Positions 42,582 through 55,878 of a DNA stretch of 64,000 bases are shown here, piece after piece. The DNA lies in NCBI RefSeq assembly GCF_024298765.1, contig NZ_CP101210.1, one strand, 5' to 3'. The position numbers and the translations under genes are program-made. Each line of letters begins with the position of its first letter. The first letter of the stretch is position 1. This DNA is from Escherichia coli. Lineage in GTDB: Bacteria > Pseudomonadota > Gammaproteobacteria > Enterobacterales > Enterobacteriaceae. Below the pieces are notes generated by a model. That model did no database searches, was not told the DNA's origin, and was given only the letters and a program-made list of their open reading frames with translations.

Positions 42582-43026
42582 GAAATGTTCCTTTTCAAAC
42601 CCTGTTGGATTTTGTCAAGACGGTACAGACACAGTAAAGCGCGCATCAACACCTGAAAGGTACGATACAAACACAAGTTACAAACAATAAGAACGGAAGG
42701 ACAATTAATCAGTGAGGAATAATAACTAAATTAACCAAAAGAATGTTACTGACAATACCACCAATACTTAAATAGCAATATATTAATTAATGTAAGAACA
42801 GATGCCCGGTAAGACATATACACAATACATCCACAAACACACTCTTTTCATTAAATAAATCACCTGATTAAACCATGAAAGTGTGATGTAAGTCAAAATT
42901 ACTGACACAATCAATTGATAATGATTATCTCTATCATTATCGTGAAATTCGAGAATGAAAGGAGAAGTAGTCATTATAAGTCTTTTATAAATCGTCATCA
43001 TCATAGTAAAGTAGAACACTTTTTAT

Positions 43027-43485
43027 ATGAGTTACTATATGAAAATATACTGGACAAGAAAAAACATTCCTGAACTTTCAGCACTTCCACCTTCATTAAG
43101 AAAGAAAAATTTTACTGACGCATATAATGCTGCATCTTCCCATATCGAATACTGGATAGGTGCTGGCGTCTCATTTATCTCGATGATGATTTTATTCAAA
43201 GTATATGACTTTCTTTTACCCGCCCAAGATACTTTCCCGGGTGATATCATAAGAAGTTTATGTGTTGTGTGTCCATCCATATTAATCTGGTTTCAGTTTT
43301 CGGTATATGTCATGAGGAAATATTACAGACATATTCTGGAACGAGGTAAGGAAACCGAAACCATTTCAGAAAGGTTGATACGTGAGGCTGATACACGAGA
43401 ATATGAATTATGGCGTCCGGCCCATCGCTTTTTCTCCATTATTCTATTAGTTTGCATTCATTCACTGATAACAACTATAAAATAA
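43027..43485 (+). CDS. hypothetical small membrane protein at edge of microcin cluster
   Basis: 152-aa ORF with 2-3 hydrophobic helices; no recognizable family. Confidence 0.4.
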   Translation: MSYYMKIYWTRKNIPELSALPPSLRKKNFTDAYNAASSHIEYWIGAGVSFISMMILFKVYDFLLPAQDTFPGDIIRSLCVVCPSILIWFQFSVYVMRKYYRHILERGKETETISERLIREADTREYELWRPAHRFFSIILLVCIHSLITTIK

Positions 43486-45266: not shown

Positions 45267-47369
45267 CTAATTTGTAATTCTAAAAATCCGATCAACTGTT
45301 CTTAAAGTTGTCTCTCTATGTGCAATAATCACCCGGGTGATATTCATCTTTTTTATAGCAGCATTCACGAAACGTTCACTTTCTGTATCAAGAGAACTTG
45401 TAGCCTCATCCATAAATAATATTCCAGGTTTCCGGTATAAAGCTCGGGCAATGAATATACGCTGTTTTTGACCGCCGGAAAGACCTTCCCCCAGTTCACC
45501 TATTAACGTTTCATACCCCATTGGCATTTTCATTATCACATCATGAATATGACTTGCTCTGGCACATTCTGTCATCCATTCGTCGTCTGTTTCTTCTGCA
45601 AACCCACAGATATTTTCACGAATTGATCCTGAAAATAGCCGGTCGTCCTGCATAACACAGGCTATCATACGGTGATAATTATTTATTCCAAGTTGACGTA
45701 TATCCGTGCCATTAACCAGTACTTTTCCACTATCTGGTTCAAACAGTCCACATAATACTTTCATTAATGTGGTTTTTCCGGCACCGGAGGCACCAGTTAT
45801 AGCCACACTTTCTCCCGGAGCCACAGACAAATTCAGACCACTGAATACCTGTGCTGACTGGCTGTCATACCGGTAGCTTAAATCAGTGGTTTCCAGTGAA
45901 ACCGGGCTCATGTCAGCAACGATTTCAATTTCCGGTTTCTTTTCTTCCTTTTCATGTAGTGCAATATCTGCAATGCGCTCATTATGCAGACTCATTATTC
46001 TCAGTTGAAGAAGAAAACTGGTCAGCGAAGCAACCCGATCCGAAAACTGCCCACGAAAAGAACCAAATGCCACAAACATCCCTATTGTCATCTGATTATC
46101 GATCACAAGGCTTGCACCCAGCCATAAAATCGCCACCTGATCACAGGCGGCAACAAAAGTATTTATCCCCCCGAAGAGCAAATCCATCCTGGTTAACTTA
46201 ATACCTGAATTGATCGCATCTATTTTCAGGTTAAGCCAGTGTGTTCCCCGAATCCCAGCCATACCCTGGATTTTTACCGTGGCAATACCATACAGGCTTT
46301 CCATAAAATAGGAGCTGGCCCGGGCCCCCCTGACAAGAGTTTCTTCCGATATTTGCCGGTAATAGCCGTATGTCACCAGACGAATAAGAACGTAAACCAT
46401 GGTAAAACCGAGCACTATCCAGGTAAGATATCCTCCATATAACAGCATCATCACAAAAACACCCACAACCATAATACTGTCCATGATTGCCCCAACAACA
46501 CAGGTGGTAAAGGTGGCCCTCAAAGTGTCAAGGGAGCCAAAACGCGACTGGATATCACCTAATTTACGGCGTTCAAAAAACGCCAGCGGCAGTCTGAGAA
46601 GATGGTTAAACAGACCCGACTGCCACTGTATATTGATGAGCGTGCTCATAACCAGTGAGGACCATGCACGCAGCATACTCACCGCGGCCCTGAGCAATAT
46701 AAAGAACATCAGGCCAGCAGAAATAAGCGTCAGCAGCCCTCTGTCCCCCGCCGGAATCGCATGATCCATAACCAGCTGAGTTCCCACCGGCATTACCAGA
46801 TTGATTGCTTCAATTACAACTGACAGACAGAAAATTTTCGCCAGTGTTCTTTTAATACCGTAAATACTGTTAATCAGTGAACGGAGACTTATGCGGGTCT
46901 GCTGGGTTTCCGCCAGGAATTCACTTCCGGGCCAGACCTCAAGTGCAATGCCCGTAAAATACCGGCTCATTTCCTCCCGACCGAGATATCTTCTGCCTCT
47001 GGCCGGATCATGCAGTACATAACGGTTACGCTTTACGCTGACCAGCACGACGAAGTGACTGAAATCCCAGTGGAGAATACACGGCATTTTGAGGGCACCA
47101 AGTTCATCCAGCTCCAGTGAAAGAGCCCGGGTGACCATCCCCAGCTGCTCCGCTATTCCATTGATTCCTGCAAGGTTTGCTCCACGGGCCGAGAGATTAA
47201 ACTTCCGGCGAAGAGATATCAGGTCAATATTCTTACCAAAATGACCGCATATCATTGCCAGGCAGGCCAGTCCACATTCAGCGGTCTCCGTCTGATGAAT
47301 AACCGGAACACGACGTCGCCAGCGCATATCAAGCTGATTTATAATTTGTCTGAAATTCCCGTTAGTCAT
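45267..47369 (-). CDS. mchF: microcin export ABC transporter with N-terminal C39 peptidase domain (CvaB/MchF family)
   Basis: ORF track 45267..47387; near-identical over long stretches to remembered CvaB ([32 protein letters not shown]...); Walker [10 protein letters not shown], signature LSGGQKQR. Confidence 0.9.
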
Positions 47370-48636
47370 TGAGCGGTCCTGTTGCACTGTGTTTCATGTC
47401 ATAGAAAGGAGAAAGCATCCACTGGTAAATACGCCTTTTTTCCAGAAATAGTGTACTTTCGGCTTTCATTCCATTTTCCAGAGGGAGGTATTTTTCGTCA
47501 TATCTGATAATCTGCTTTTCAGGCATCGCAATGACTTTATACCAGGGAACAGAGTCGCCCGGCGTATTCTGTGGTGCTCCCTTATAGGTCAACATTTCCT
47601 GTGTTGACGCAGGAGTCCTGGATATAGTTTTAACCGTAGCAGAGAACTGCCCAAATTTTTCTGCCGGAAAGGCTTCATAACGAATATTCACTTTGTCACC
47701 AGCCGAAATATAAGGAACAGCATCATTCGGGACCCAGAGAATAAGATAATAGTTTTCAATGTTCTCAGGAATAACCTGCAGAAGGCTGTCTCCGGTATTG
47801 ACCATTTGCCCGACAGTGACACTCAAGGAGTCAACTTTCCCGTCAGTCAACGCCCGGATAATGATTTCGCCCTCCACATCAGTGTTAACCAGTTCTTTCT
47901 GTAACTCATACCGTTGCAGTTCCATCTGGTAGATACGGTTATCAAAATCTGCAGCCTGAGTCTGAATCTGACTCTCCAGAGTGGTTATCTGCAGGGCATT
48001 CTGTTCGTTCTGTCCGCTCAGGCTGAGAAGATTGTTTTGTTGCTGATAATATAATGCCACCTGGTTAGTTAACTGATCTTTATTAATCAGCCCTTTTGCC
48101 TGATAGTTTCTGTAATTCTCCATATTGTTTTTCATTATTTTTATCCCTTCCTCTGCACGCTGTATAATATCTGATGAGCGACGAAACGCATCTGTGTATT
48201 GCAGGCGTTGTTTTTCCAGGGTATCTAGCGTTATTTTTTTACTTTCTTCCAGACGGGAAATAATGTTGTCCACACGAACCAACTGGTTTTCTATATCCCG
48301 ACGATGATTATCAGTGACAATACCACTACGTGTACTTTTACTGATGTCAATCAGATAAACAGGATCCCCTTTTTTTATCAACTGTCCTTCATGAACAAAC
48401 TGCCTGACAACAAATCCCTGTACACCTGAATATATATTGACAGCTCTTGGCCAGGTTGTGACCTCACCACTGACATTAACACGGCGGCTATAGGTACCAA
48501 CAATAATGAACATCAGAAATGCCGTAATAAACACTATGCTTCCCAGCATGATTAACCATAGTGGTATTCCGGGAAGTAATATTGCCCGTCCCTGCCACTT
48601 CATTTTTCTGTTTTCTAAAGCATCCTGACGAAACAA
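47362..48636 (-). CDS. mchE: microcin secretion membrane-fusion protein (CvaA/MchE, HlyD family)
   Basis: 424-aa ORF; N-terminal TM anchor, coiled-coil region; matches remembered CvaA. Confidence 0.9.
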
Positions 48637-48788
48637 AATAGCTCCTCTTACTCACACTTTTCCTGTAATACCTTCACTGGTTAACCGAAATGCTATAATC
48701 AAAGCCAGAAAATATAGAGTCCTGTTAAAATAGTATCAGCGATGCATTTACCCCGTAATTTACAATTATCTCTGTATCTTCAGAGGTA

Positions 48789-49241
48789 CTACGTTTTATG
48801 CAGCCGCTCAGGGATGTATGTCACAATTTTCTTTCGCCTGCTTAACCATCGTACTTCTCCTTCTCCCCATGGCTGAAGCTGTATGAGATAGTCAATAACT
48901 TTTCGACCAAAGCCTGGTTTACAACAGAAATCCAGAATCCAAATCCTTCCATCTTCATTCCATTCAGACGGATGCAACCTGAATTCTGGATCCCTGAGCA
49001 GGCGCGCTTCTGTATCAGCCTCAAGATATGCCCAGGTAATATACGCCAGTGGAAAACCTCGTGAATCAAACAGGAATTTAATCTGATTATGCTGTATCGC
49101 ATATTCAGTCCAGTATTGAATGGTTAACACCGGATACAGACTGTAATTACGATTGTAGAGCATACAACTGACCGCAAAACCGATCTGTTCATAAACAGTC
49201 CATTCATCTTTTCCTCTGATGTTTTCCCTTATATAAGACAT
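48789..49241 (-). CDS. mchD: microcin maturation accessory protein (MchD/MceI-like)
   Basis: 150-aa ORF between mchE and mchC; assignment by synteny with the H47/E492 systems as remembered. Confidence 0.55.
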   Translation of the reverse strand: MSYIRENIRGKDEWTVYEQIGFAVSCMLYNRNYSLYPVLTIQYWTEYAIQHNQIKFLFDSRGFPLAYITWAYLEADTEARLLRDPEFRLHPSEWNEDGRIWILDFCCKPGFGRKVIDYLIQLQPWGEGEVRWLSRRKKIVTYIPERLHKT

Positions 49242-49266
49242 GATTACTATTTCCCTTATATATTTT

Positions 49267-50817
49267 TTACACTGTGTTTCTTATCGGTTCAAGATATCCA
49301 AATGCATCTCTGGAAAACTTAAGCATAAAATTTTTCATATCAGAAATTGCTTCTTGTAAAAAAAGGGGATCATCGCCATGATTATCCAGCAGGATGGCAA
49401 TTTTTTCGCACATATTCTCTTTCCTCAGCTCTTCCCTGGGTTGCAGCCTTTTCATGGTATGATGTTCAATTTCTTTCAGGAGTAATGAGGCATTTATCTG
49501 ACGTCTGGTACTGCCTTGCGTCAGCCAGTGGATGGCCTGGGAAAAACACTGTTGTGCAACGGTGAAATAAACATCATTCTTGATGCTACTATTCAGTGCC
49601 TGCTTTTGATTATGCCTATGATGGATTAGCGTCACAACCAACTTTTGCAATGGTGAACCATCCTGATTGACAATATCTTGGGCATGTGATTTCTCGCAGT
49701 ATTGATTGAGTAATGCAACAAAACTGTTAACCAGTTCTTTCAATATATCAGGTATCTCTTTTTGTGTTATAAATTCTCCAGGAATACCCAACAGTTCTAG
49801 ATAACAGTAATAACATGCTTCATGAAAAGTTTTCTGAAATATCTCCTCAACCTTCAAACGGGCTGCAAGAGTGAAGTCAGGGTCAAACATATATTTTCCG
49901 ATATACAAGCAGAGATCAGACAGCCCTTGCATAAGTACCATCGGTTCTTTTGCCAGTTCAGCTAATCTTAGTTTATACCCAAAATCAGCTGGGGAATCTC
50001 CCGGAAACAGACAACTGAGTCCGCTAAAATCCATTAATCTGCCATCCATTGCAATATTAGAAGGAGAAGTTGTCAATCTCAGGAAACGTGTTCGACAAAA
50101 TGCCATTTGCCAGGCCTCACGACGTGCCAGTTCACATAACCCCTCAATGCAATAAATCCGGGGATCAGTTCGTGCTTCAGCATCAATTTCTTCCGGTGGT
50201 ACAGGTAGATATCCTGGCAGCTTGTGGATCACAGATCTAACCCGACAGGCATCGTGAATTAACAGACTGGAATACTCCGGTTTTACTTGGAAGTAAGGTG
50301 CCCGTTCAAAATGCGCCGGACGAACAACAGGCTCACGTACCAACAGGGCTCTTCGTGATTTCCTACCGGAGCGCTCAAATGCCTTTTCAGTATAGAGATC
50401 TGTAAGTAAAACCGCCCGAACCCGCACAGCACTATAAGGTAATATTTGAGCCAGTACTTCTCCCCACAAAGCCTCATATATTGCATGAACAGCGCCGAGT
50501 GCACCATTAGAATGACGTTCGTCAGTACCTTCGCCAACCAACGGATTACTTCCTATTCCTTTAACCTGGTAGTTACCATCAAACCCACAACGTGCACCAC
50601 CTCCATTACGCTGAATACCACTGCCACCATAGCGCTCTGCATGGAACACTTTGGCAGAAGCTGTACTGCCAGGATCGATAATATAACTGCAGGCATTTTG
50701 CAGCTCGTCTGGATTTCTGACATCCTCTGCACACCAGATTAATGAGGCCTTGATCTGCCTGGCAGTGAAAGGCACCAGGTTTTCATTCAGTTCAGAAAGT
50801 GAACACTGATGACTCAT
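49267..50817 (-). CDS. mchC: microcin maturation protein (MchC/MceJ-like)
   Basis: 516-aa ORF immediately downstream of mchB; size and position match remembered MchC. Confidence 0.6.
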   Translation of the reverse strand: MSHQCSLSELNENLVPFTARQIKASLIWCAEDVRNPDELQNACSYIIDPGSTASAKVFHAERYGGSGIQRNGGGARCGFDGNYQVKGIGSNPLVGEGTDERHSNGALGAVHAIYEALWGEVLAQILPYSAVRVRAVLLTDLYTEKAFERSGRKSRRALLVREPVVRPAHFERAPYFQVKPEYSSLLIHDACRVRSVIHKLPGYLPVPPEEIDAEARTDPRIYCIEGLCELARREAWQMAFCRTRFLRLTTSPSNIAMDGRLMDFSGLSCLFPGDSPADFGYKLRLAELAKEPMVLMQGLSDLCLYIGKYMFDPDFTLAARLKVEEIFQKTFHEACYYCYLELLGIPGEFITQKEIPDILKELVNSFVALLNQYCEKSHAQDIVNQDGSPLQKLVVTLIHHRHNQKQALNSSIKNDVYFTVAQQCFSQAIHWLTQGSTRRQINASLLLKEIEHHTMKRLQPREELRKENMCEKIAILLDNHGDDPLFLQEAISDMKNFMLKFSRDAFGYLEPIRNTV

Positions 50818-51088: not shown

Positions 51089-51316
51089 TTAGCTACCGCC
51101 ACCAGCAGAAGAACTGGCACTACCACTTCCCACGGTCGAGCCAATTGCTGTTGTCAAACCGGCAGATACGGCTCCAACTACAACCCCAAGTGGACCACCA
51201 GGTATTCCGGCGAGAGCTCCAACAATAGCTGCAGCACCTGCAGCATTAGCTGAAGTCGCTGGCGCACCTCCCGCCCCGGAAATATATCTTAACTGTGATT
51301 CTGTTATTTCTGGCAT
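51089..51316 (-). CDS. mchB: microcin H47 precursor
   Basis: 75-aa ORF M(P)EITESQLRYISGA-GGAPATSANAAGAAAIVGALAGIPGGPLGVVVGAVSAGLTTAIGSTVGSGSASSSAGGGS; core matches remembered MccH47 sequence. Confidence 0.9.
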   Translation of the reverse strand: MPEITESQLRYISGAGGAPATSANAAGAAAIVGALAGIPGGPLGVVVGAVSAGLTTAIGSTVGSGSASSSAGGGS

Positions 51317-51964: not shown

Positions 51965-52210
51965 ATGAATTGTGATAATAATCACAGAAATGAAGAATTC
52001 ATTGTTACCTTTGATAAAGGCAACAAGCAAGACAATTCAAGACGAAAACACGATAATTTTCCTATAGAGGTAGAATCCTCCGTAGAGCAGGAGACACACT
52101 GTATCACAAATAATAAGTCAGCTTCCGGTATAGTAACACATGACTATGATGCCGATTATATTTGTGGTTGTGGTGAAATTATGTGTCCTGGTTGCGGTCA
52201 TGACCTATAA
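51965..52210 (+). CDS. small Cys-rich hypothetical protein
   Basis: 81-aa ORF with C-terminal CGCGEIMCPGCGH cluster; no family assignable; coding status uncertain. Confidence 0.3.
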   Translation: MNCDNNHRNEEFIVTFDKGNKQDNSRRKHDNFPIEVESSVEQETHCITNNKSASGIVTHDYDADYICGCGEIMCPGCGHDL

Positions 52211-52365
52211 CAAACATTTTTGCAAACTGATACCTGATCAGGTACAAGCCTGTTGATTATTATGCTGAATATTTCATGTTATAAAACCATCGATATAAAC
52301 ATTAACAAGAAAAAACATATATTGTTTATCTGAACATTTATCGATGGAAAACCAAAGGGGAAAGT

Positions 52366-52800
52366 ATGTATCTTACGAAAAAGATTATAATAAGTATGAT
52401 GTTTATATTACCATCTGCTGCATTTTCATCAGATCCACCTCCCCTTCAACAATCGTTAGAAAAAACAACCTATTTTTCTATAGGTATGAATGGGTTTATA
52501 GGCTATCAGAGCGAAGGGGAAAAATTATACACACACATTCTTACATTAGATAATCCCGAAGAGATATTTAAAAATATAATAGAAAATAGAAAGTCAACTA
52601 AGGAGTCTAAAATTTATGCTGCTTGTGGGCTATATTATTTAAACGTAGAAAATATAGAGTCATTGTTTAATGAAAATGATAAACAAGAATATATGTCTGT
52701 CTTAAGAGGGGATATTTTAACAAAAATAAAACTGAATGATATTCTGAATTCTGTGATAATAAATGGTTGCAACACCAAATTAATATCTGAACATAAATGA
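52366..52800 (+). CDS. secreted small protein adjacent to microcin-like precursor (possible immunity/accessory protein)
   Basis: 144-aa ORF with Sec signal peptide (MYLTKKIIISMMFILPSAAFS); ends 16 nt before the precursor gene. Confidence 0.45.
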   Translation: MYLTKKIIISMMFILPSAAFSSDPPPLQQSLEKTTYFSIGMNGFIGYQSEGEKLYTHILTLDNPEEIFKNIIENRKSTKESKIYAACGLYYLNVENIESLFNENDKQEYMSVLRGDILTKIKLNDILNSVIINGCNTKLISEHK

Positions 52801-52816
52801 GCAGGAGGTTTTTAAA

Positions 52817-53053
52817 ATGAGAGAAATATCAGATCACATGCTTGATTTCGTGAAAGGAGGGATGAATCTTAATGGATTACCTAGTTCTACTAATGTAATA
52901 GATCTACGAGGAAAAGATATGGGAACATATATTGATGCTAATGGAACATGCTGGGCTCCGGGTACTCCATCCATCATCATGTATCCGGGGGGAAGTGGAC
53001 CTTCTTATAGTATGAGTAGTTCCACATCCAGCGTAAACAGCGGCACATCATAA
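52817..53053 (+). CDS. double-glycine-leader class IIb microcin-like precursor (possibly MccI47-type; identity not confirmed)
   Basis: 78-aa ORF; leader MREISDHMLDFVKGG; Ser-rich C-terminus SMSSSTSSVNSGTS; located next to IroD/IroB homologues. Confidence 0.6.
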   Translation: MREISDHMLDFVKGGMNLNGLPSSTNVIDLRGKDMGTYIDANGTCWAPGTPSIIMYPGGSGPSYSMSSSTSSVNSGTS

Positions 53054-53337: not shown

Positions 53338-54612
53338 ATGATACCTATGAAAAACTATCTTTTCCAGACTCCCGAAGATATTTGTGTACAGTTAAAAAAA
53401 ATGACACATCCTGTCACAATAAGAACAACAGATATTGCTAATTTCTGGCACTATCTTGAGTCAGCAACACTTCCAGTGATCACAAAAAGCACCACTACAG
53501 AAAATCGGGAGGTTACATTTCTGTGGCGCTCAGAGAAAGCACTGCAAGGCGTATATCTTCGCCTGAATCGTGTTACAGATAAAAAAGACGTCAAAAAAGG
53601 ACTAATGACTCATATCCCTTCGACAGATATCTGGATGCTGACACTGGTGTTACCAGCTTCATATCGGGGCTCATACTCATTTATAGAAATTCCCACAGAT
53701 ATGACACAAAAAGACATATTTCAACTAGGAAGTCGCTTCTCTCCATTACCCGGTAAATCTGATCCATTTAACAAAACAGCAGAAATAAATATACGAGGAT
53801 TCGGAGAATCAGTCCTTTCTCTTGATATGGCTCCTGAACAAAAGGAATGGGATGATACTTCCCATAAATGTACAGGTATTCTTTCAATATTACATTCCTT
53901 TGTTGCAGGATATCAACGCCGGATTCGTTTATATTTCCCCCTGAATCCAACATCAGTACCTCTTGGATTACTTGTGTTACCTGATGCTGAAACATGGTTT
54001 GACCGGATAGATATTACCCGGGCATTAGATATGGCCATCACCACTGGTCGTATCACGCCAATGGCAATTATGGGGATAGACAATATTAATGAATCTGATC
54101 GTATGAATATACTGGGAGGCAATAAAGAACTCATCTTTGATATAGCGGAAAATCTGATACCCCAGTTATACAGAGACTATCCGGATATCGTATGGGCTGG
54201 TCGCTCTAATACTGTACTGGCCGGGCAGAGCCTCGGTGGAGTGACAGCACTGATGGCAGCTATATATGCGTCGACAACATTTGGTACAATCATTAGTCAC
54301 TCACCTTCAATGTGGTGGAACCCTGACCAGGGCAGCCCGATCTTGTTTACTGAGAATAATACCTCCTGGGTAAGTGAGCAGATACTTTCAGCGCCTCCGA
54401 AAGATGTAAATATCCGACTTGGAGTCGGTTCTTTAGAAGGTACAACCGTCTCACATGTTCAGCGATTGCATCATTCGTTAATCGCAGCTGGTTTGGAAAG
54501 TAACCTCACTGTCTATACCGGTGGTCACGATTATGCTTGGTGGCGCGGAGCAATTATTGATGAATTAGCAAATTATAATTGCAGGAAGGTATCAAATAAT
54601 AACTCTGTGTAA
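53338..54612 (+). CDS. enterobactin/salmochelin esterase homologue (IroD/Fes-like; MceD/McmK/MchS1-type)
   Basis: 424-aa ORF with serine-hydrolase motif GQSLGG. Confidence 0.7.
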   Translation: MIPMKNYLFQTPEDICVQLKKMTHPVTIRTTDIANFWHYLESATLPVITKSTTTENREVTFLWRSEKALQGVYLRLNRVTDKKDVKKGLMTHIPSTDIWMLTLVLPASYRGSYSFIEIPTDMTQKDIFQLGSRFSPLPGKSDPFNKTAEINIRGFGESVLSLDMAPEQKEWDDTSHKCTGILSILHSFVAGYQRRIRLYFPLNPTSVPLGLLVLPDAETWFDRIDITRALDMAITTGRITPMAIMGIDNINESDRMNILGGNKELIFDIAENLIPQLYRDYPDIVWAGRSNTVLAGQSLGGVTALMAAIYASTTFGTIISHSPSMWWNPDQGSPILFTENNTSWVSEQILSAPPKDVNIRLGVGSLEGTTVSHVQRLHHSLIAAGLESNLTVYTGGHDYAWWRGAIIDELANYNCRKVSNNNSV

Positions 54613-54753: not shown

Positions 54754-55878
54754 CTACAATTGTTTCCCGTTGTTTTTTAATTTTCTCATCAAAACCTCTG
54801 CGATCTCTGCAGGAGTGGGTTGTTCAGCCATTTCAGCGGCTACCTGATCTGAACAGAAGCGTAGTGAATCATCATAAAGCAGGCGATTTACCAAATCACT
54901 GGTCAGTCCATGCTTGTCCGGAATAATCCCACACCCACGCTTCGCAACAATTTCTGCATTAACAGAGCGATCTGCACCTTCTCCAAACACAATCTGTGGT
55001 ATTCCACTATACAGCGCTGTCAGGGTATTACCTGCGCCACCGTGATGAATAAATCCATCAGCTCCATTAAGGAATACACCCATAGGTATCCAGTCAACCA
55101 GACGTACATTTGATGGTAGTTTTCGTAATCCAGTACGAGCATTTATTGCAAGTTGCAAAATGATATCAGCATCAACTTCATTTGCTGAATCCATAACCCA
55201 TGAAATCAGCTCCAGACCATCAACCATTGGTTTTACAGTGCCAAGGCTGATGAGTAAACGTTTCCGATCAGAATCCCTGTCCCACCATGTTTCCTTTACA
55301 GCACCTCCGTTATAAGGAATATATCGCATTGAGATAATCGGTTCTTCAGCATTTTTAAGAATGCTCATACTTGGGGGAGCAACATCAATCCATGCTAAAT
55401 CACATAGTGGACCGCTGACTCCATGCCGCCTGTAAGCATTGCTTAAAGAACGGTTTAACATCTGAATATGGGCAGATGTATGCGCGAATCCAACAGCCAG
55501 CATCACTGAAGAAATTCTATATTTAGCAGCAACCAATGGGCCTGCCGGACCAAGCGGGGGATAGACTATTAAATCTGGCCTCCATTTTCCTGCAAAATCG
55601 ATGAGGTTATCTGCCATTTCATCGCTAAAAAAAGAGAAATGACCAATAATATTACTTTTTTTCCTCAACTCTTCCTGATGACGATATCCAGCCTCTGAAT
55701 CTAAACTTGGAGCTGCATCAAAAACAACCAGTCCAGCTTCTGCTGCTTTATTCGCGAATTTGCCAGCGCTACTAATTACTACATCATGTCCGATTACACG
55801 AAAGGCCTGAGCCAGAGAAATCAATGGGTATAACAAACCGTACAGCGGAGGGCCAATAAAAAGAATACGTTTTCGCAT
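54754..55878 (-). CDS. IroB-like C-glycosyltransferase (MceC/McmL/MchA-type) for siderophore-microcin maturation
   Basis: 374-aa ORF; GT1-family architecture; C-terminal donor-binding region ...HHGGAGNTLTALYSGIPQIVF... Confidence 0.7.
   Translation of the reverse strand: MRKRILFIGPPLYGLLYPLISLAQAFRVIGHDVVISSAGKFANKAAEAGLVVFDAAPSLDSEAGYRHQEELRKKSNIIGHFSFFSDEMADNLIDFAGKWRPDLIVYPPLGPAGPLVAAKYRISSVMLAVGFAHTSAHIQMLNRSLSNAYRRHGVSGPLCDLAWIDVAPPSMSILKNAEEPIISMRYIPYNGGAVKETWWDRDSDRKRLLISLGTVKPMVDGLELISWVMDSANEVDADIILQLAINARTGLRKLPSNVRLVDWIPMGVFLNGADGFIHHGGAGNTLTALYSGIPQIVFGEGADRSVNAEIVAKRGCGIIPDKHGLTSDLVNRLLYDDSLRFCSDQVAAEMAEQPTPAEIAEVLMRKLKNNGKQL

Follow-up and report, generated by a model that had tools for sequence, protein, structure and literature searches.

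The microcin I47 immunity protein MchS3 appears to be exported to the periplasm and linked to a modular toxin core

What kind of protein protects a bacterium from its own microcin when the gene next to the toxin gene does not seem to encode a membrane protein? A 64,000-nucleotide stretch of Escherichia coli DNA (NCBI RefSeq assembly GCF_024298765.1, contig NZ_CP101210.1), which we refer to as the window, raises this question at a pair of genes that adjoin homologues of IroD and IroB. The first gene encodes a 144-residue protein with a signal-peptide-like N-terminus and the second a 78-residue, double-glycine microcin precursor. A sequence-only reading of the window had guessed that these are mchS3 and mchS2 of the microcin I47 (MccI47) system, and had remarked that a signal-bearing, probably periplasmic partner would be unusual for a class IIb microcin. 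The literature portrays class II microcin immunity proteins as small, helix-spanned residents of the inner membrane (PMC7472721; PMC12219008 section 19; PMC12999681), and an adjacent open reading frame (ORF) with transmembrane helices is the criterion by which microcin mining recognises an immunity gene (PMC11634061; PMC12219008). Our overall reading, to which we assign a probability of roughly 0.75, is that the pair is a known operon and that its immunity protein, MchS3, is exported, resides in the periplasm and neutralises imported toxin through the toxin's core.

Comparison with named proteins identifies both genes. The 144-residue protein matches the NCBIfam model NF041432 from end to end (model positions 1-105 of 105) with 137.2 bits against a curated cut-off of 100 bits (E 2.4e-40), its gene bears the RefSeq name 'mchS3: MchS3 family protein', and it is identical to UniProt Q712P9 at 142 of 144 positions, the window allele having E73 and M110 in place of K73 and V110. 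The 78-residue peptide shares 91% identity, and a 90% cluster, with Q712Q0, 'MchS2 protein'. Judged by these matches, the window carries a common natural allele of mchS3-mchS2 (mciI-mciA), an operon already known from the siderophore-microcin island H47/I47/M of E. coli. The earlier guess at MchS2 and MchS3 was right, and because that identity is established the gene pair itself is already described and adds nothing new, as the sequence-only reading had allowed for this case. Its description of the locus also held: both ORFs, their coordinates, the quoted termini and the two neighbouring Iro homologues were confirmed.

Much is already published about this system. Reviews citing Poey et al. 2006 present mchS2 as the gene of the 77-residue MccI47 precursor and mchS3 as the gene of its immunity protein (PMC7472721; PMC6795089), and the two genes form one operon (PMC7472721). 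Mortzfeld et al. renamed them mciA and mciI and obtained active MccI47 from mciIA together with mchCDEFA; leaderless mciA without mciI kills the host and served as a lethal counter-selection marker (PMC9542533). During maturation the leader is cut by MchF, of the MchF/MchE exporter, and MchA, MchS1 and MchCD attach a glycosylated derivative of enterobactin to the tail; the product enters target enterobacteria through catecholate-siderophore receptors, and mchS3 protects the producer (PMC7472721; PMC9542533). We found no report of the MccI47 target in the literature examined.

We asked where the MchS3 protein is likely to reside. It has a single hydrophobic stretch of about 14-16 residues, at the N-terminus, and nothing else that could span a membrane. 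Its Kyte-Doolittle hydropathy over 19-residue windows peaks at 1.37, below the transmembrane threshold of 1.6, and MchI, a control encoded 800 bp away in the same window, has two segments above that threshold. Canonical class II immunity proteins have two to three transmembrane helices in about 100 residues or less, whereas MchS3 has 144 residues and no segment that reaches 1.6. Candidate signal cleavage sites, SAA/F and AFS/S (the slash marks the bond), follow hydrophobic residues 7-20.

A comparison of 54 homologues with 23-43% identity to MchS3, scored by heuristic sequence criteria, indicates that the N-terminal 30-50 residues are conserved in character and not in sequence. A lysine or arginine precedes the hydrophobic stretch in 49 of the 54 proteins, a strongly hydrophobic 10-mer occurs in 50, and every one has a candidate -3/-1 site, many of them of the textbook AXA type (ANA/Q, TQA/S, AQA/N, ASA/A); about six carry lipoboxes such as LVSC, LIAC or FMAC. 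By these heuristics the family retains the features of Sec export or lipoprotein processing, namely a signal with n-, h- and c-regions followed by a -3/-1 site or a lipobox. Two cysteines accompany this pattern: C87 never varies, and just one of the 54 homologues lacks C135. Because of the charge distribution and the paired cysteines, the MchS3 domain would lie on the periplasmic side, whether the signal is cleaved or serves as an anchor.

An AlphaFold2 (AF2) model built from the homologue alignment (predicted local distance difference test score (pLDDT) 88.4; predicted template modelling score (pTM) 0.79; core pLDDT above 90) depicts a soluble domain of helical repeats in which residues 109-122 form a beta-hairpin. 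The N-terminal segment stands apart from this domain, with pLDDT of about 65 over the first 20 residues, and the NF041432 model begins at residue 31. Hydropathy, family N-termini, cysteine conservation and predicted structure all favour the suspicion that the partner is a signal-bearing, probably periplasmic protein of a kind unusual for class IIb, and from them we infer both cleavage and localisation. On this evidence MchS3 differs from MchI, McmI and MceB in not being a small polytopic protein of the inner membrane; it is probably made with a Sec-type N-terminal signal that is cleaved or at least oriented N-in/C-out, and its helical-repeat domain of about 115 residues, probably disulfide-bonded, would reside in the periplasm. 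The field's generalisation about membrane proteins thus seems to misdescribe it.

Larger than other class IIb immunity proteins and apparently exported, MchS3 might be expected to act as a periplasmic enzyme that inactivates the microcin, for instance through peptide cleavage or loss of the siderophore. We find this scarcely credible. Pfam returned no match for MchS3 or the 54 family members, a PDB sequence search with the family profile returned none, and no catalytic motif was found; the predicted helical-repeat fold may resemble binding modules such as HEAT-like scaffolds and the N-terminal domain of Prp38; and some toxins paired with MchS3 homologues have no siderophore tail. One of the 54 family members gave a weak match to Tai4 (E 0.01), which we rejected as chance, and MchS3 showed no sequence or fold homology to the Tai4, Rap1a or Cmi-type immunity families.

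We next considered which part of the toxin such a protein would recognise. MchS2 consists of a leader, a toxin core and a Ser-rich tail (Table 1). Class IIb leaders are about 15 residues long and end in GG or GA (PMC11634061), and all 11 homologues compared have GG or GA at positions 14-15, with G14 invariant. The core of about 45 residues retains 18 invariant columns across the same 11 sequences. At the C-terminus the precursor has the Ser-rich, Ser-terminated end (...SMSSSTSSVNSGTS) and the fewer than two cysteines (C45 alone) expected of class IIb; the role of such tails is known from literature on these microcins (PMC7472721; PMC6795089). Pfam had no match for the MchS2 precursor, nor did a PDB sequence search with the toxin profile give one.

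The mature N-terminus of I47 toxins from outside E. coli, LNWTGNRESTNVVDLRG (L008 2980-3192; L009 1623-1835; P0203), resembles the start of YpfJ, MRWQGRRESDNVEDRR. YpfJ is a putative metallopeptidase (E. coli K-12 copy at L015 7875-8738). The resemblance is no more than a lead: 9 of 16 positions are identical and the pairwise E is 5e-4, but this is insignificant proteome-wide by our estimate, and the toxin profile missed YpfJ.

The distribution of MchS3 across bacteria bears directly on its function. A profile search of 1.84 billion representative proteins yielded 237 MchS3-related clusters at E <= 1e-3, 71 of them at E <= 1e-10, mostly 125-160 residues long. We scanned genomes for MchS3 homologues with an alignment of 14 closer sequences, and searched every six-frame ORF of the loci for toxins with a hidden Markov model of I47-type peptides. 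At six independent loci outside E. coli (L008; L009; L013, GCA_029335555.1; L017, Mixta theicola; L018, Serratia bockelmannii; L020, S. proteamaculans) the MchS3 homologue is immediately followed by an intact I47-type toxin gene, and in L007, L016 and L026 it is followed by a truncated remnant of one. L018 also contains a peptidase-domain ATP-binding cassette (ABC) exporter, an HlyD-type protein and a CPBP protease, and HlyD-type genes adjoin the pair in L013 and L032.

Searching from the toxin side gave 68 clusters of proteins within E <= 10, almost all of them with values far under 1e-10, and with hosts in the Enterobacterales (Serratia, Salmonella, Pantoea, Erwinia) and in Cupriavidus and Burkholderia. 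These I47-type toxins have exchangeable tails: some are Ser-rich with a terminal Ser, some contain Cys or are MccV-like (PF17508), and some are short and acidic. At four of four toxin-anchored loci with differing tails and contexts an MchS3-family gene lies directly upstream (E 1e-46 to 1e-50), and every I47-type toxin gene examined has an MchS3-family gene in this position, often overlapping it. The MchS3 family thus seems to be a broad exported family strictly linked to a modular toxin core. A stronger statement, which we regard as evenly balanced, is that MchS3 is the founding, experimentally anchored member of a Sec-exported, disulfide-bonded periplasmic immunity family dedicated to the mobile I47 core, which in Enterobacterales and Burkholderiales has been joined to uptake tails of siderophore-accepting, MccV-like and other types.

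Some of these loci have further features. A JmjC/cupin-type gene directly follows the toxin gene at L032 5354-6265 (GCA_052115665.1; Cupriavidus sp. toxin P0225), where it precedes a split C39-peptidase/ABC exporter, and at L013 8711-9297; its product could be a modification enzyme. At L030 3569-4289 an MchS3 homologue and an I47-core toxin with an MccV-like tail (PF17508, weak) lie between phage tail genes and a two-partner-secretion (ShlB/TPS) locus, with no exporter gene close by.

We propose that MchS3 is exported, that its domain faces the periplasm, and that it there neutralises imported microcin through the toxin core and not through the uptake tail. Immunity would be directed at the core because the MchS3 family follows the core whatever the tail and the host. 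Direct binding and sequestration of re-imported toxin would be the most likely mode, for which we see about even odds; the alternative, that MchS3 shields the periplasmic face of an inner-membrane receptor or target, is one that we doubt.

Several considerations weigh against this proposal. Leaderless MciA is toxic in the cytoplasm (PMC9542533), which means that the target can be reached from inside; periplasmic MchS3 would then protect only against re-imported toxin, before the inner membrane is crossed or engaged. An AF2 model of MchS3 fused to the toxin through a (GGGGS)5 linker, made from only 9 paired and 44 unpaired alignment rows, showed no confident docking (toxin pLDDT 40-62, pTM 0.59). 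The c-region of E. coli MchS3, in which SAA/F or AFS/S is followed by DPPP, is moderately canonical and less so than that of many homologues, and the N-terminal segment could be an uncleaved anchor, in agreement with the membrane-bound label of the reviews. These points can be joined into a different account, in which MchS3 is bitopic, its signal anchor tethering the domain at the outer face of the inner membrane, where it protects a membrane receptor or target and does not sequester toxin. Killing from the cytoplasm suggests a membrane or cytoplasmic target (PMC9542533), and reviews place class IIb immunity proteins, MchS3 included, in the inner membrane with a putative transmembrane region (PMC6795089; PMC7472721; PMC12999681). 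We nevertheless judge tethering unlikely, though it deserves serious attention: the hydrophobic core is 14 residues long, broken by Pro16 and under the 19-residue transmembrane threshold, and the textbook AXA sites or lipoboxes of many homologues imply processing. The domain would face the periplasm all the same, and only the tethering and the bound partner would differ.

The breadth of the family also counts against the proposal. Orphan MchS3 homologues without a toxin gene exist in several Serratia species and in L014, L025 and L027, and the family reaches Verrucomicrobia and Acidobacteria, where we saw no I47-type toxins; the MchS3 domain may have other roles. The Serratia orphans (L019, L021, L022, L023, L024, L028) share a chromosomal site that is conserved among them, flanked on one side by a LysR-type regulator/carbonic-anhydrase-like gene pair and on the other by a gene for an ABC-F ATPase; L020 has an intact toxin gene at this site, and these six have no I47-type toxin gene. 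Some distant family members carry 3-10 tandem MchS3-like domains behind a signal- or lipoprotein-like N-terminus (P0077, 511 residues; P0125, 551 residues; P0129, 1351 residues), and together with the remote members they suggest that the MchS3 fold is a general extracytoplasmic module with wider uses.

One could then suppose that the 144-residue protein is a general periplasmic protein, such as a housekeeping binding protein, that is merely co-located with mchS2, and that the true immunity protein comes from an unrecognised small membrane ORF. The many clusters, AlphaFold-database matches that span several phyla, and the toxin-free Serratia site would fit this view, and the literature searched yielded no paper on MchS3 topology or mechanism. 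We consider it very improbable. Cloning work in the literature identifies mchS3 as the immunity gene, and production required mciI beside mciA (PMC7472721; PMC9542533; for the Raoultella pair, PMC11634061). Distant homologues keep the MchS3 frame, and the alternative-frame ORFs within mchS3 are not conserved. Orphan immunity genes are familiar among bacteriocins, and E. coli O104:H4 retains mchS3 with a truncated mchS2. The sequence-only reading had held that conservation elsewhere without microcin genes would speak against a role in immunity; such orphans do occur, as in Serratia, but no I47-type toxin gene examined lacks its upstream MchS3-family gene.

If MchS3 does bind the core in the periplasm, several consequences would follow. 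MccI47 would be the first member of class II whose neutralisation falls to a soluble protein of the periplasm and not to an integral-membrane one, the combination of one core with different uptake tails would be explained, MchS3 would be a practical reagent for study of the toxin, and its co-purification would give a direct handle on the mode of action. Work to engineer MccI47 into a live therapeutic that targets carbapenem-resistant Klebsiella is already under way. A family of immunity proteins that are soluble and exported also clashes with the transmembrane-helix assumption of microcin-mining pipelines, which may mislead on mechanism (PMC11634061; PMC12219008). The residual interest of the MchS3 family is nonetheless modest, all of it resting on bioinformatic reasoning.

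The two genes differ markedly in allelic variation. Window MchS2 differs from Q712Q0 by N7H, S11F, A23S, A44T, D49G and A73V and by T77 inserted before the last Ser (...VNSGTS in the window, ...ANSGS in Q712Q0), with two of the six substitutions in the leader. The canonical 77-residue form is present in other E. coli genomes (for example L002 3518-3751), and L004 has an allele intermediate between the two. The exact window mchS2 allele was found on at least 1000 contigs and is thus a common natural variant. Relative to the canonical genes, mchS2 has six nonsynonymous and three synonymous differences and one inserted codon in 77 codons, and mchS3 two nonsynonymous and no synonymous differences in 144 codons; per nucleotide, mchS2 has diverged about 10 times as much. 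Four Logan proteins (P0031, P0032, P0036, P0037) were rejected as true variants, being frameshift fusions with an alternative-frame ORF at 52344.

An 801-bp region spanning the locus is present at 100% identity in at least 22 complete E. coli chromosomes, and at least 80% of it occurs in 145 of 5426 genomes, chromosomally every time. Nissle, CFT073-like and many other genomes match only the first 198 bases of the query, which agrees with the published absence of mchS2 and mchS3 from Nissle-type islands (PMC7472721; PMC6795089). E. coli genomes of the O104:H4 outbreak lineage (NZ_HF572917, HUSEC2011; P0005) have mchS2 truncated after about 68 nucleotides. Their immunity-only arrangement resembles that reported for strain CA58, in which an insertion sequence between mchS2 and mchS3 abolished production (PMC7472721; PMC6795089).

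Of practical concern is that mchS2 goes unannotated in many RefSeq genomes, as in record NZ_CP007491. The gene is unannotated in ACN002, VG38-53E1 and FORC_028 and a 'hypothetical protein' in E10 and 158274-3, and in every such genome the mchS3 beside it is named (the window; L001 9502-10038; L004; L005).

The features of the locus are collected in Table 1. A gap of 16 nucleotides separates the mchS3 stop codon from the mchS2 ATG, an operon-like layout. The promoter candidate is a lead only, because shuffled sequence is expected to contain as many sites of this kind as the region does. Folding reveals a hairpin at the mchS2 stop codon with a free energy of -31.5 kcal/mol (z -7.07; none of 200 shuffles equally stable), which a simple terminator scan missed. 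The G+C content is 28.5% for mchS3, 41.4% for mchS2 and 46.8% for the whole window, and the AT-rich pair fits a horizontally acquired islet. No Fur box was found near mchS3-mchS2 at three or fewer mismatches, the best upstream match being 12/19.

Table 1. Positions of the mchS3-mchS2 pair, its protein segments, candidate signals and neighbouring genes in the window
Feature	Position	Strand	Basis or detail
mchS3 (mciI), immunity gene of microcin I47	52366..52800	+	144 residues, start MYLTKKIIISMMFILPSAAFSSDPPP; RefSeq name and NF041432
Sec-signal-like N-terminal segment, MchS3 residues 1-21	52366..52428	+	K5K6 n-region; hydrophobic core I7-F20 including P16
Conserved MchS3 domain, residues 31-135	52456..52770	+	Predicted helical repeats, beta-hairpin 109-122; C87 and C135
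mchS2 (mciA), microcin I47 precursor gene	52817..53053	+	78-residue allele; leader MREISDHMLDFVKGG, C-terminus SMSSSTSSVNSGTS
Double-glycine leader, MchS2 residues 1-15	52817..52861	+	MREISDHMLDFVKGG; GG/GA motif
I47-type toxin core, MchS2 residues 16-59	52862..52993	+	Pattern G..S.NV.D.RG.D.G.(Y/W)IDAN..CW.PGT.S..MYP
Ser-rich C-terminal tail ending in Ser, MchS2 residues 60-78	52994..53050	+	Presumed siderophore attachment and receptor uptake
Candidate sigma-70 promoter for mchS3-mchS2	52296..52323	+	TAAACA-16-TATATT; weak, consensus match alone
GGGGA, Shine-Dalgarno-like	52357..52361	+	4 nt before mchS3 ATG; sequence reading
AGGAGG, Shine-Dalgarno	52803..52808	+	8 nt before mchS2 ATG; sequence reading
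Stem-loop, perfect 18 bp, overlapping mchS2 stop codon	53048..53086	+	Probable transcription terminator
mchS4, context gene upstream of mchS3	51965..52210	+	81 residues; same 90% cluster as Q712P8 'MchS4 protein'
IroD-like enterobactin esterase gene (mchS1/mcmK), maturation	53338..54612	+	Enterochelin esterase match, E 8e-57; names from PMC7472721
IroB-like glycosyltransferase gene (mchA/mcmL), maturation	54754..55878	-	Glycosyltransferase family matches; names from PMC7472721
mchF (peptidase-domain ABC exporter), mchE (HlyD-type), mchD (acyltransferase-like), mchC	45267..50817	-	Annotation of ACN002

Around the pair, the window holds the genes that characterise a class IIb cluster: IroB-like and IroD-like proteins, MchC/MchD homologues, a peptidase-domain ABC exporter and an HlyD-type protein. 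The annotation of mchF to mchC was taken from strain ACN002, which is 100% identical (offset 43299), and there mchI, mchB, mchC, mchD, mchE and mchF lie on the strand opposite to mchS3-mchS2. The mchCDEF genes provide the shared export and siderophore-attachment functions that MccI47 requires (PMC7472721; PMC9542533).

Other parts of the island gave observations of their own. The mchS4 product has a C-terminal CGCGEIMCPGCGH motif with four cysteines and is unannotated in ACN002; a short hairpin with a T-rich tail follows the gene at 52239-52252. MchB, the microcin H47 precursor (51089-51316, minus strand), begins MPEITES in place of the MREITES found elsewhere, a leader R2P change that ACN002 shares, and the exact window sequence was not found in a collection of 15 billion proteins. 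The sole strong Fur-box-like site in the window, at 42917-42935, has two to three mismatches to GATAATGATAATCATTATC, with none expected by chance, and lies about 90 bp upstream of a 152-residue ORF (43027-43485) and a CPBP-type gene at the far end of the island.

Among known systems, the closest is MccI47 of E. coli H47/CA46 (Q712Q0, Q712P9), which has the same genes in the same order and spacing within the same island: mchS4 upstream, the esterase and glycosyltransferase genes downstream, and mchXIB-CDEF on the opposite strand. The MchS2 leader type, toxin core and Ser-rich tail are alike, and the window toxin is an allelic variant. More divergent is the homologous pair Ro I47A/Ro I47I from another species, Raoultella ornithinolytica, which is active when expressed (64/135 and 37/79 positions identical; eLife 2024, PMC11634061); it corresponds to a Raoultella match in the AlphaFold database with 46% identity to MchS3. 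In that work the immunity gene was handled as encoding a transmembrane-domain protein, and export was not discussed (PMC11634061).

The immunity genes for MchI, McmI and MceB likewise lie directly upstream of the cognate microcin gene, are co-transcribed with it and protect the producer (PMC7472721). These proteins have 69-95 residues and two to three predicted transmembrane helices, whereas MchS3 has 144 residues, a signal-like segment and a soluble domain with a cysteine pair, and we saw no sequence similarity between MchS3 and the three. Small domains that are exported or N-terminally anchored, often disulfide-bonded, and that neutralise a periplasmic toxin are familiar from the colicin M immunity protein Cmi, the pesticin immunity protein Pim, and Tai4 and Rap1a of type VI secretion systems, and they may serve as a working analogy for MchS3. 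MccH47 and MccV are modular class II microcins, with a toxic N-terminal module and a C-terminal uptake module. The I47 core likewise recurs with Ser-rich, MccV-like (PF17508) and short acidic tails, but its constant module appears to be paired with an exported, and not an integral-membrane, immunity protein.

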